In this document: positions 1-17,779 of the stretch, in pieces
Layout of the letters: every line of letters starts with the position of its first letter
Numbering within the stretch: the stretch's first letter is position 1
Assembly: GCA_002366685.1 (NCBI GenBank)
Contig: DFBP01000113.1
Coordinates: forward strand, 1-25,125
Source of the DNA: Rhodobacterales bacterium UBA3077
GTDB taxonomy: Bacteria; Pseudomonadota; Alphaproteobacteria; Rhodobacterales; Rhodobacteraceae
Reading direction: 5' to 3'
DNA length: 25,125 nt
Translations under genes and position numbers: made by a program
Notes under the pieces: generated by a model
Told to the model about the DNA's origin: nothing
Databases searched by the model: none
What the model saw: the letters and a program-made list of their open reading frames with translations, nothing else

Positions 1-602
1 TCAGCCCATGCCATAAGCTTGCCGCTGACATATTCAGGGCCATTGTCGACTCTGATTATTTGCGGCTTGCCACGCCATTCAATAATCCGGTTCAGGCTGC
101 GCACCACCCGCTCGGCGGGTAGTGAGAAGTCCACCTCAATGCCCAAACCTTCGCGGTTGAAGTCATCTAGCACGTTAAGGGTCCGGATCGAACGTCCATC
201 TGCCAATTGGTCAGCCATAAAATCCATCGACCAAGTATGATTGGCTGCGTCCGGCACTGCTAGTGCGTCCGGTCTGTCCCGTTTTAGCCGCTTCTTAGGC
301 TTGATCCGTAAGTTCAACTCCAACTCGCAGTAAATCCGGTATACCCGCTTATGATTCCAGCCAAAGCCCTTCACATTCCGCAAATACAGAAAACACAGGC
401 CAAAGCCCCAGGTGCGACGGTTGTCGGTTAGCTTCTCCAGCCAATCTGCGATCTCGGCATTCTCGTCACTCAGCTTGCATTCATATCGATAACAGCTTTC
501 ACTGATCTGGAACGTTCGACAGGCCAGCGCAATGCTAATCCTGTGACCAGTGACCGCTTTCACGGCCATCTCCTTACGCAGGGATGGCCTTGCTACTTTT
601 TT
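1..602 (-). CDS. IS3 transposase OrfB (DDE integrase core), partial, open to the window edge
   Basis: Manual translation: [16 protein letters not shown]...[35 protein letters not shown]...[10 protein letters not shown]...[12 protein letters not shown]...[12 protein letters not shown]. There is no stop; it is absent from the ORF track because it runs off the edge. Confidence 0.93.
596..602 (-). other. -1 programmed ribosomal frameshift motif A AAA AAG of IS3
   Basis: The minus strand reads GGA AAA AAG TAG at the orfA end, and orfB continues in the -1 frame (AAA AAA GTA GCA). Confidence 0.85.
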
Positions 603-643
603 CCAAGCACTTCCTTCAGCAAATCATTTTGCATGCTCATCTC

Positions 644-683
644 CACTGCCCGGCAGTTGATTGCACAGCAATCAATGAGAGGG
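644..683 (-). repeat. 40-bp hairpin mini-element, copy A
   Basis: CCCTCTCA-TTGATTGC-TGT-GCAATCAA-CTGCCGGGCAGTG: a perfect 8-bp stem plus a terminal palindrome. It interrupts orfA between codons GCT and GAG. Confidence 0.92.
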
Positions 684-967
684 AGCATACATCCGCTTCA
701 GGCGACGGTTCTCCTCAGTCAGCGACTTCATCTCCGACATCATAGACGCGTCCATTCCGCCAAACTTTGATCGCCATTTATAGAAGCTGGCCGAACTCAT
801 TCCGTGTTCTCGGCAAAGCTCTGAAACAGGAACCCCGCTCTCGGCCTGCTTCAAAATACCCATGATTTGCGCGTCGCTGTATCGTGTCTTCTTCATCAAA
901 ATCTCCTCAGATTATTATGCCGAGAAAATTCTACTTGTGAACACCACTAATTTTCGGGGGGATTACC

Positions 968-15184: not shown

Positions 15185-15250
15185 ATGAGCAATCTGGGCC
15201 TCGAAATGATCGATCGCACTGTTCAATTGACCCAGGAGTGGATCAACGAG
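15185..15250 (+). pseudogene. 5' fragment of a DUF2267-like gene truncated by the IS3
   Basis: AAGGAG RBS, then MSNLGLEMIDRTVQLTQEWINE, which resembles DUF2267 N-termini as recalled. The frame runs into the IS end. Confidence 0.6.
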
Positions 15251-15305
15251 GTGCCCCTAGAATTGTAGACACCTTTTTACCTAAAAATAAGGCAATGAGG
15301 CCACC

Positions 15306-15618
15306 ATGGCAATGCAAGATTCAGTGAGCTTTTCAAATGGGATGCGGTGCATCAAATTGTGGTGCGGGGATATCCGGTTGCGGAGGTTTCGAAGCGATTA
15401 GGTGTCAGCTCTCACTCGTTATACGCTTGGGTGAAGAAGTTTTCCAAAGCACCTGACATTGACACCGGAGACGAACACGCAACCGAGAACAGGCGGTTAA
15501 GGCGGGCGCTGGCACGTGTCACGGAGGAGCGTGATATCCGAAAAAAGGCCACCGTATGTCGACCGGCAGGTGAATGGCACATTCACCGAGAGGGAACTTC
15601 GCCAGAGATGCCAAATGA
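15306..15618 (+). pseudogene. IS3 OrfA pseudogene
   Basis: DAVHQIVVRGYPVAEVSKRLGVSSHSLYAWVKKF...ERDIRKKATV|YFARDAK*. There is an apparent 1-nt deletion after the ATG and a 38-bp insert near the end. Confidence 0.85.
15558..15595 (-). repeat. 38-bp hairpin mini-element, copy B (divergent)
   Basis: Minus: (T)CCCTCTC-GGTGAATG-TGC-CATTCACC-TGCCGGTCGAC, a perfect 8-bp stem. Removal restores ACC GTA TAC TTC GCC AGA GAT GCC AAA TGA. The boundary is ambiguous by 1 nt. Confidence 0.8.
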
Positions 15619-15632
15619 AGTATGCGTTTATT

Positions 15633-15672
15633 CACTGCCCGGCAGGGTATTGCGCAGCAATGCAATAGAGGA
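15633..15672 (-). repeat. 40-bp hairpin mini-element, copy C
   Basis: Minus: TCCTCTAT-TGCATTGC-TGC-GCAATACC-CTGCCGGGCAGTG. Removal restores TTT ATT GAA GAG CAT. Confidence 0.9.
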
Positions 15673-15858
15673 GAAGAGCATCGCCCTCTGTTTTCGGTCC
15701 GTGCGATGTGCCGTTGTTTGCGCGCTCACCCCAGTGGTTTCTATGCGTGGCTGAAGAACCCTCACAGCAAAAGGGCCGCCAAAGATATGCGTCAGACGAA
15801 GTTGATTAAAGAGGCTTGGGAAGAAAGCGGCAAGGTTTACGGCTACCGCAAGCTGCAT

Positions 15859-15898
15859 CCCTCTATTTGATCGCTGCGCAATCAGCTGCCGGGCAGTG
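15859..15898 (+). repeat. 40-bp hairpin mini-element, copy D
   Basis: CCCTCTAT-TTGATCGC-TGC-GCAATCAG-CTGCCGGGCAGTG. Removal restores AAG CTG CAT GAT GAT CTC. Confidence 0.92.
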
Positions 15899-16346
15899 GA
15901 TGATCTCTGTGATCAAGGTGAGACCTACTGCCCTAAACGTGTGGGGCGTCTGGTTCGGTTGGGCGGTATCAAAGCCCAGATCGGCTATAAACGCCGCCCT
16001 GGCAAGTATGGCGGCAAACTATCGGTTGTGGTGGATAACACGTAGAATCGCCGCTTTGATGTCGATGCACCGGACAGGTTCTGTGTGACTGACATCACCT
16101 ATATCAAAACCTATGAAGGGTTTTTGTCTCTAGCGGTCGTTATTGATCTATATTCCCGTCGTGTGGTCGGTTGGGCGACGCACAGCCGTCAATACACCGA
16201 CCTTGCTCTGCAAGCAATACTGATGGCGGTGTGGCGACGCAAGCCATTGAATCAAGTGTTGATCCATTCCGACCAAGGCACACAATTCACCAGCATGGAA
16301 TGGGCAACATTTCTAAAGCATCACAATCTTGAACATAGCATGAGCC

Positions 16347-16387
16347 CCCTTTCGGCAGATTGCTCCGCAATCGCCTGCCGGGCAATG
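16347..16387 (+). repeat. 41-bp hairpin mini-element, copy E
   Basis: CCCTTTC-GGCAGATTGC-TCC-GCAATCGC-CTGCCGGGCAATG. Removal restores ATG AGC CGA CGA GGG AAT TGC (MSRRGNC). Confidence 0.9.
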
Positions 16388-16612
16388 GACGAGGGAATTG
16401 CCATGATAATGCCGTTGCCGAGAGCGTTTTTAATCTGTTGAAACGGGAACACATCAGACGGCGACTATATAAAACCAGAGAAGACGCAAGGCGTGATATC
16501 TTCGATTACATCAACGGCTTCTATAACCCGCGCCGGAGACACTCAACATTAGGCTGGAAAAGCCCCTTGGCTTTCGAAAGGATTGCCGCTTAAATGAGAT
16601 CTTGGGGCCGCA

Positions 16613-17779
16613 CTAAAGCGTGACAGGTCCAAACCCCCTTGCATGGCGGGCTTCCCTGAATTTCGGACCAGTATCTACGCTTAAATGGCCAAGGTCCTGC
16701 AAAAGATGCAGAGCTTCCAACTTGTCTTCAATTTCACTCTTTTTACCCGCCAAAGCTTCCGCTAAATGGGCCGATAGAGCTTCTGTTGCTGTATTGGCAA
16801 TCGAAACACTTAGCGATGCCATAGAGTCTTGCGCTTTTGGGGGTTTGTCAGCAGTAAGGATAAGACGGGAAAAGTAGAGTGATTTGACAGGAAAGTCCGT
16901 TTCGCCCTTAACTTCATTCTTTGCCACGTTCCAGTTAAATGACTGCGAAAACTTTAAACCGTTCTCGCTATGGCAGCTTGTATTTTTCTTCGCATTCTCA
17001 AAATCAAAGGAACGGTGAGCGAAGTGTTTTCTAACAATATCAGCATGGCAAAAATCATGTTCTGCTTCGCGATACCAGCCCGCGAGATAATAGGTCGTCT
17101 CTACCCCCTCAATAGGAGGTTTAGGGTCTTTAAAGCCGAAAACACTTTGACAATTCTGGTAATACGCCGAGAAGGTCGGCTCGCCATAGCCCAGTGCCGT
17201 AAGCGAATAGTCGGTGACCTGCTTTAGGTGTTCATGAGGCTTGTCTAACCAGTCCCAATGTGCCTCATCCAGACAGCGGCCCATATATCTAAAAGGGGGC
17301 TCTCTAGGGCCAGCATTCTCATACCCGATCGGATAGCACACCGCGCCTGAAGTTGCGCCTTCTCCAGGAGGGTAGACATAGTCACTTTCAACCAAATACG
17401 AGGTGCCAACTGTATCATCACCATCGTATCGGGTGATGAGCCACATGTTTGGAACCGCAGGAAACGCAAAACCTTTGGTTTTTTCGGAGTGAGCTTCCAA
17501 GTCTTTGTCTTTTTTGGATCGAACATCCAAGCTCTGCGTCAGGGCATCTGGTAAAGCCCAGTGAAGGTGTACGCCCGGCGAAAGCTCTCCTGTATCGTCA
17601 AAGGGGGCGCTAACCAGCTCTTCACTGACAAATGCTGTTCCGCCATTTACATCGCGACTTCTATCAAAATATGGCAATTTGGAAAAATCGGCCATTGCGG
17701 GGCGGGACTTAAGCGTTGAATCAACCCTTAGCGCGTCCAACCGAACGGGTACCATTAGATGATTATCGGCTTCGCTCAT
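16613..17779 (-). pseudogene. Hypothetical protein, probably C-terminally truncated by the IS
   Basis: 388-aa ORF with motifs GVHLHWALPDAL, FPAVPNMWLITR and YLVESDY. Its last codons (GPVTL*) are encoded by the IS right end. Confidence 0.65.

Follow-up and report, generated by a model that had tools for sequence, protein, structure and literature searches.

A small hairpin repeat of Rhodobacterales with a strong tropism for the DNA of insertion sequences

Among described systems, the CGTC-tagged repetitive extragenic palindromes (REPs) of Alphaproteobacteria, and the GTAG REPs and REPINs that occur with REP-associated tyrosine transposases (RAYTs), are imperfect palindromes of 20-40 bp that fall into sub-families (PMC3733652). 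Here, we describe a family of hairpin repeats of marine Rhodobacterales, found in a window of 25,125 nucleotides from Rhodobacterales bacterium UBA3077 (the whole stretch that was analysed; GenBank assembly GCA_002366685.1, contig DFBP01000113.1, positions 1 to 25,125 of the forward strand), where four copies, B to E, interrupt one insertion sequence (IS) of the IS3 family and a fifth, copy A, lies in a second one. The family has a strong tropism for the DNA of at least 10 unrelated IS families, and the four hits in one IS are a local symptom of this wider, apparently undescribed phenomenon. We consider it probable, at roughly 0.6, that B-E and copy A are non-autonomous mini-elements that were moved single-stranded with a preference for IS DNA and then hitchhiked with their hosts.

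Several described systems resemble this element in part. It shares with REPs its size, its imperfect palindrome, compensatory variants of the stem and an adjoining CGTC-like tetranucleotide, and, as for the CGTC REPs, no dedicated transposase was found. In REPs, however, the tag is part of the repeat, whereas the YRTC beside the new element is target DNA, as judged from empty sites; the element further has long conserved single-stranded arms of 13 nt and 9 nt; and REPs are extragenic, of high copy number and often arranged as inverted doublets, whereas the element is of low copy number and lies inside IS genes, with no doublets seen. The IS200/IS605 family and the palindrome-associated transposable elements (PATEs), which move by the 'peel and paste' of Y1 enzymes of the histidine-hydrophobic-histidine (HUH) type, likewise insert without duplication, in one polarity, 3' of a tetra- or pentanucleotide, carry hairpins and leave precise empty sites. 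The element differs from them in its ~41 nt with a single central hairpin instead of hairpins at both ends, and Y1 genes are absent from the genomes richest in it. To our knowledge, tropism for ISs is not a property of the IS200/IS605 family. The rolling-circle HUH Y2 elements IS91 and ISCR also insert without duplication beside a tetranucleotide ending in TC (GTTC for IS91), but the resident integrase+Y2 elements have different ends and co-occurrence with Y2 genes is weak. Rickettsia palindromic elements (RPEs) are small, palindromic, mobile, found inside protein-coding genes and stop-free in several frames; they insert in frame in functional host genes, whereas our element measures 38-42 nt, mostly not multiples of three, and has only transposase genes as hosts. 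Group II introns in IS or relaxase genes, and IS1111/IS110 elements in REPs or attC sites, live inside mobile elements and spread with them, yet they are kilobase-sized, bring their own enzymes and recognise long specific targets, whereas the element is 41 nt long and non-coding, with a target of ~4 nt plus some further feature. A classical miniature inverted-repeat transposable element mobilised by a DDE transposase does not fit either, as there is no duplication and the ends, CAYTGCC and CCCTCTC, are not inverted repeats. The element thus fails a defining feature of REPs, PATEs, IS91 derivatives and RPEs. A literature search that included the core sequence as a word returned no published description of the family, which is apparently undescribed, and we found no report of a small hairpin repeat that lives inside other transposable elements and does so in many unrelated IS families.

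The five copies and their hosts are arranged in the window as follows (slashes mark junctions):

About 15252..16631, plus strand: host IS of the IS3 family, with orfA (Pfam match HTH_Tnp_1) and orfB (HTH_21 and rve, with further rve_2/3 pieces).
15306..15309, plus strand: 1-nt deletion that puts the orfA ATG (15306-15308) out of frame, seen as a 1-nt gap against homologs and a split frame.
15541..15547, plus strand: A AAA AAG programmed -1 frameshift site, identified by sequence and kept in every aligned homolog.
15558..15595, plus strand: insert B, 38 nt, in orfA, KKATV / YFARDAK; empty site ...GTAT/ACTTCGC in three homologs.
15633..15672, plus strand: insert C, 40 nt, in orfB, MKYAFI / EEHRP; empty site TTTATT/GATAAG in L010.
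15859..15898, minus strand: insert D, 40 nt, in orfB, YRKLH / DDLCD; absent in three homologs.
16043..16045, plus strand: in-frame TAG in orfB, CTG in homologs.
16347..16387, minus strand: insert E, 41 nt, in the rve domain, HSMS / RRGNC(HDNA); limits from the reading frame.
1..960, minus strand: second, unrelated IS3-family IS, IS407-like, cut by the contig start (orfA 672-899, orfB 3-569); host of copy A.
645..684, plus strand: copy A, 40 nt, antisense to orfA of the second IS, splitting RMYA/EMSMQNDLL; limits from the reading frame alone.

The ends of the host IS were set from repeated end fragments in sister genomes and from its TG...CA termini; it measures 1380 nt at present and 1221 nt after subtraction of the four inserts, which split its coding sequence into five pieces. 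In the forward convention used here, CAYTG...GAGGG, B and C run along the transposase gene and D and E against it; an earlier note on this DNA, made from the sequence alone, used the opposite convention for the same facts. Its description of four inserts in both orientations is borne out, with base-exact limits for B, C and D from alignment with homologous IS copies of four sister species of the same genus and for E from the frame. The empty-site comparison revealed no target-site duplication at B, C or D, and the length of none of B-E is a multiple of three. No empty-site homolog of copy A was among the loci collected; its host IS served as a search seed and matched other IS3 contexts. Insert B belongs to a divergent subtype with the stem GTGAATG/CATTCAC, lies 10 nt downstream of the A6G slippery site and escapes nhmmer, its nearest relative being a stem variant in L099. 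Insert C has the form GGTATTGC..GCAATGCA, insert D is found by nhmmer at 29 bits, and insert E, found at 49 bits, represents the commonest subtype, GCGATTGC..GCAATCTGCCG.

Pairwise identity among copies A-E is only 51-82%, with different stems and subtypes, so the five copies are separate arrivals and not local duplications, in agreement with the independence that the earlier note had proposed. An exact-core search of the 2.6-Mb assembly returned these five copies only, all within ~2.3 kb of IS DNA. That all five stand on one contig of a fragmented metagenome-assembled genome (MAG) could speak for an assembly artefact, or for local duplication or gene conversion inside the window. Existing evidence already refutes this: besides the divergence of the copies, the family occurs in isolate genomes and finished plasmids, and empty sites occur in other genomes and in metagenomes.

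Copies of the family share a common layout, CAYTGCCCGGCAG, a stem of 8-9 bp closed by a 3-nt loop, and CCGAGAGGG; the usual length is 41 nt, with a range of 38-42. A profile search found 183 credible copies in the fetched loci, and 177 events are left when identical flanks are removed. Stem cells are paired in 99% of cases, compared with 91% in shuffles, and stem pair 16-30 covaries (G-C 60, C-G 52, T.G 22); in rarer copies the whole stem is changed on both sides (ATTCC/GGAAT, ATCGC/GCGAT, GAATG/CATTC). As the inner five pairs are fixed by the search pattern, evidence for the stem is limited to the outer pairs and the profile-found variants. The consensus of types 1 and 2 is stop-free in all six frames, as are 59% of 116 distinct canonical copies against 11% of shuffled ones; since the copies are related, this reflects one ancestor and is not independent evidence. 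An Rfam scan of the window yielded no match at the gathering threshold.

Of 17 genomes from the same genus, 11 contain the element, and it was not found in any of 24 genomes outside the family Rhodobacteraceae. A looser pattern matches 52 of 201 sampled genera of this family, whereas a reversed control pattern matches none of the 201; together with the absence of the core elsewhere in the 2.6 Mb, this excludes a chance origin of the inserts. Matches to the strict pattern number 1 to 14 per genome, and a looser 11-nt core, after subtraction of the control pattern, suggests perhaps 20-50 copies per genome. A scan of public genomes returned at least 120 stretches, essentially all from Rhodobacterales among the matches listed, and PLSDB holds the element on 77 plasmid records, all from Rhodobacterales, one source being Dinoroseobacter shibae DFL 12. 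The family is confined to Rhodobacterales in the data searched. One match in a Bacteroidota MAG (L098) lies inside long open reading frames (ORFs) with a low score and is probably due to chance.

The sequence before the element is biased: among 140 distinct events, C stands at -1 in 106, T at -2 in 98 and a purine at -3 in 120, and the commonest adjoining tetranucleotides are CATC, TGTC, CGTC and GATC. Insertion takes place directly 3' of a YRTC-like tetranucleotide, in one defined polarity and without target duplication. As YRTC is present in empty sites, it belongs to the target DNA and not to the element. The precision of insertion is confirmed independently at an IS3 element of genome G179: two marine metagenome contigs (X4, X6) match it at ~98% identity while skipping exactly 41 nt (CA..GG), with no target duplication at the site, and the filled form occurs in sediment metagenomes.

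How closely is the element tied to ISs? Used as tblastn seeds, 14 Pfam-verified transposase fragments label 118 of the 177 events, distributed over IS3 (76), IS5 (20), IS1182 (6), IS66 (6), IS110 (5), IS21 (3) and IS256 (2). In the remaining 59 events, the best flanking ORFs matched 20 Pfam families, of which 18 are IS families, including DDE_Tnp_1 and relatives, rve, IstA, Transposase_mut, IS91 Zn/Y2, IS6, IS110, IS630 and IS66 TnpB; the two others, RelE and DUF6233, have one match each, and no housekeeping family appears among these flanking ORFs. DNA-level clustering of the junctions leaves ~127 distinct sites, almost all of which lie in transposase genes, from at least 10 IS families; this indicates that the IS-only pattern is not a matter of few events multiplied by descent.

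Two explanations of this pattern do without an element that seeks out ISs. The element could land at any YRTC, with insertions elsewhere purged and those in ISs multiplied along with their hosts, so that survival and hitchhiking act as a filter in the place of real targeting. The multi-copy composites in G179, D. shibae and G129 described below, the many plasmid-borne copies and a 4-nt target too short to specify ISs all fit such a filter. However, it would have to produce ~127 distinct sites with essentially no identified non-IS context, although intergenic DNA exceeds IS DNA several-fold in amount and, in other bacteria, accommodates REP-type repeats (PMC3733652). Distant IS lineages are hit at identical positions, and all five copies in the window's genome fall within 2.3 kb of 2.6 Mb. 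We therefore consider a pure filter unlikely. Alternatively, a host defence might disable ISs by writing the hairpin into their genes, as the inserts break the reading frame and lie almost exclusively in IS genes of many unrelated families. We regard this as highly improbable: no associated gene was found, the composites still multiply, and the patchy occurrence among genera, the low copy number and subtypes that evolve like a transposon family are those of a selfish element.

In four loci of G179 (L204, L208, L209, L211; three near-identical copies and one diverged), the insert lies in the leader of an IS256-type transposase gene, one base upstream of the ATG. In L021 (7299-7340), a copy separates the integrase gene of an IS91-type element from its Y2 transposase gene and stands where the latter starts, making IS91 a further host family.

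Within the lineage of the window's IS, ~36 homologous copies were mapped and at least 10 insertion sites were found. In a tree built with the inserts removed, the window groups with L014, and C and E are common to both, while only the window has B, D, the frameshift and the TAG; site F marks a sister clade (L172, L173, L174). Nevertheless, several sites cut across this tree. E occurs in all four homologs that cover the site, filled in L014, L172/L010 and L175/L009, while L173 and, far off in the tree, L004 also hold an insert at C. Different subtypes occupy site G in L174 and in L104, again a distant copy, and L127 and L039 both have site I filled but are separated by empty relatives. For C and F all four character combinations are present, so this pair fails the four-gamete test. 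The same positions were thus hit repeatedly, lost precisely or exchanged between copies, and simple inheritance does not explain the pattern; that C, E, G and I are filled in distantly related copies shows genuine hot spots. Other IS3-family members (G179, L005, L115) likewise have an insert directly after DITYI. In more distant multi-copy homologs, the match that spans sites D and E is ~81 nt shorter and nhmmer detects no element, so the E site appears to be empty in them. The order of events, which the earlier note had left unresolved, is in part resolved by this distribution. The mapping of alleles that it had suggested was attempted by seeking the orthologous locus in the 17 same-genus genomes; the flanking genes had no DNA match, and the comparison is one of paralogous IS copies only.

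The window's host IS is an old, dead copy. The ordinary decay described before, a 1-nt deletion near 15308 and a TAG at 16043, is present in comparison with homologs, while the A AAA AAG heptamer, the programmed -1 frameshift site of IS3-family elements, is retained. The reading frames of L014, L010/L172 and L127 are intact once the inserts are removed.

At the left end of this IS, a short ORF start (MSNLGLEMIDRTVQLTQEWINE...) at 15186-15251 runs into the element and does not resume beyond it; it looks as if the IS inserted into a small gene, with sequence lost alongside. At its right end abuts a minus-strand ORF of 388 aa (16613-17779) without a Pfam match.

To judge whether four inserts in a single IS are too many, the earlier note proposed a Poisson test of hits per copy. 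Insert counts for the copies of this lineage in the genus are 4, 2, 2, 2, 2, 1, 1, 0 and 0 (mean 1.56, variance 1.53; minima, as some of the nine copies are partial), and no excess is seen: the chance that one of nine copies holds four or more is about one half. Inserts are found in 7 of the 9 genus copies but in none of ~25 copies from other genera, multi-copy homologs included. With Poisson-like counts in the genus and zero elsewhere, the excess lies in the hit rate on the IS DNA of the genus and not in clustering on one copy, and four hits are unremarkable once the tropism for IS DNA is granted. Two or more element copies within 1.4 kb are present at 30 of 135 loci. Of the targeting or hot spot put forward in the earlier note, the recurrent sites C, E, G and I and the near-confinement to IS genes uphold the core, while a separate mechanism for multiple hits is not needed. 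The DNA state that the note offered as a cause, such as single-stranded or circular IS intermediates, is one candidate among others.

It had also been assumed that the first hit ends the career of an IS. This is doubtful, as ISs with one, two or four elements form near-identical multi-copy sets. G179, a five-contig, 99%-complete MAG, contains five full-length and two partial copies of one IS3-family IS at different loci, 99.1-99.9% identical, and all seven copies that cover the site carry a 41-nt insert at DITYIP/MARG (for example L218, G179:C4, 1676-2901); neither an empty copy nor another IS3 paralog was found in this genome at E<=1e-10. On plasmid pDSHI04 of D. shibae DFL 12 (L247-L249, G083:C5), three identical 926-nt IS427-like copies hold two inserts each, ~300 nt apart, and the insert-free relatives in the same genome are only 73-75% identical to them; PLSDB lists no gene at these copies, which are presumably annotated as pseudogenes. 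A close parallel to the window's IS is a 1479-nt IS3-family IS in G129 (L242, L244; G129:C1) with four inserts, two per orientation, present in two full and two partial copies of 98-100% identity. In G160, seven IS5-family copies (L212-L217), 80-91% identical, are all filled at the same site by a genome-specific subtype (GGCTATTGC stem), whose copies are 95-100% identical and far better conserved than their hosts. ISs with inserts are evidently still copied, and the element hitchhikes.

The hairpin might then be tolerated by, or even useful to, the host IS, being excised precisely or bypassed by recoding, for instance by a hairpin-stimulated -1 frameshift, and acting as a brake or switch on the transposase and not as a killer. 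In G179, where all seven copies are filled and no empty one exists, the part of the IS downstream of the insert is in the -1 frame, the insert can be read through in both frames and the ORFs are intact after its removal; L014, L010 and L127 are intact apart from their inserts. The element is also better conserved than its host, with inserts 41/41 identical between flanks of 82% identity in two G160 copies and ~91-95% identity against 71-80% at site E, and its consensus is open in six frames. On the other hand, inserts occur in both orientations and at lengths of 38-42 nt that cover all residues mod 3, with up to four per IS in the window and in G129. The G179 junction lacks a canonical slippery heptamer, and take-off and landing codons are unmatched; the window's IS is plainly dead, and a helper since lost or in unassembled DNA may exist. 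We judge this explanation very unlikely. In a related form, the element-bearing ISs would not be dead at all, and the 41-nt insert would be a reversible brake on transposase genes, relieved by single-strand excision or recoding. Such a brake would explain the proliferation in G179 (at least five full copies, no helper), the intact frames in diverged copies and an insert conserved above its host; it is a tentative idea that we consider quite unlikely to be right.

We return to the reading that we prefer, movement of the mini-element as a single strand with a preference for IS DNA. The junctions show precise insertion in one polarity, 3' of the YRTC-like tetranucleotide and without duplication. 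The absence of duplication, the polarity set by the tetranucleotide, the conserved hairpin and the precise empty sites suggest single-strand HUH chemistry and not DDE chemistry, and we infer that a trans-acting HUH-type enzyme, IS200/IS605- or IS91-like, moves the hairpin as a folded single strand. Preferred landing sites within ISs are struck repeatedly, and once inside an IS, the element is copied at each mobilisation of its host and carried on plasmids, adding to its confinement to ISs. The window's four hits are as expected from a high local rate of ~1.6 per 1.2-kb copy in the genus, with C and E at recurrent hot spots. Possible causes of the preference for ISs include single-stranded or replicative transposition intermediates or another shared state of the DNA; R-loops on poorly translated genes, or selection combined with hitchhiking, are further candidates.

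Several observations weigh against this reading. No enzyme was found: Y1_Tnp and Y2_Tnp are absent from the most element-rich genomes (G179, G160, G178), and Y1_Tnp was also not found in G130 and G157. Co-occurrence is weak for both enzymes: Y1_Tnp is present in 22 of 201 genomes, with the element in 8 of these 22 compared with 43 of the 179 others, and the element is found in 13 of 28 Y2-positive against 38 of 172 Y2-negative genomes, a comparison confounded by IS load. The resident IS91 integrase+Y2 elements of G083 and G171 do not qualify as parents, as their ends, delimited by comparing pairs of copies, do not resemble the element and nhmmer gave no match. No parent was found for an IS200/IS605-derived origin, and where that family has two subterminal hairpins, the element has a single central one. 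Some 25 of the 177 contexts, on short contigs or in decayed or non-coding DNA, have no class assigned and could be non-IS. Relative to the host gene, 77 copies are antisense and 41 sense, only a mild bias; this distribution also argues against an RNA-level role that needs one orientation. Finally, IS-mediated copying accounts for each multi-copy set of G179, and none of these sets calls for recent transposition by the element itself.

Two local associations with candidate enzymes were rejected. In L021, the element interrupts the IS91-type integrase+Y2 element and does not form its terminus; in G165 (L230), the neighbouring Y1 gene belongs to an IS200-like element in an IS-dense patch, whose own end hairpins are unrelated. 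A CRISPR repeat, an attC site, a dif/Xer site, a ribozyme, an intron and a T4-type translational bypass were likewise discarded, because their sequence features, the two orientations or the lengths do not fit.

If the tropism is true, genome annotation is affected in practice, as many 'transposase pseudogenes' of Rhodobacterales are intact genes with one 41-nt insert. The multi-copy composites raise the question of how an IS with an interrupted transposase gene is mobilised, for which D. shibae DFL 12 offers a tractable model. A true tropism would also point to a physical state shared by IS DNA that an enzyme can read, and the element would be a natural probe of transposition intermediates. 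It would also constitute a layer of parasitism on ISs, shaping which copies stay active in the genomes and plasmids of the Roseobacter group.

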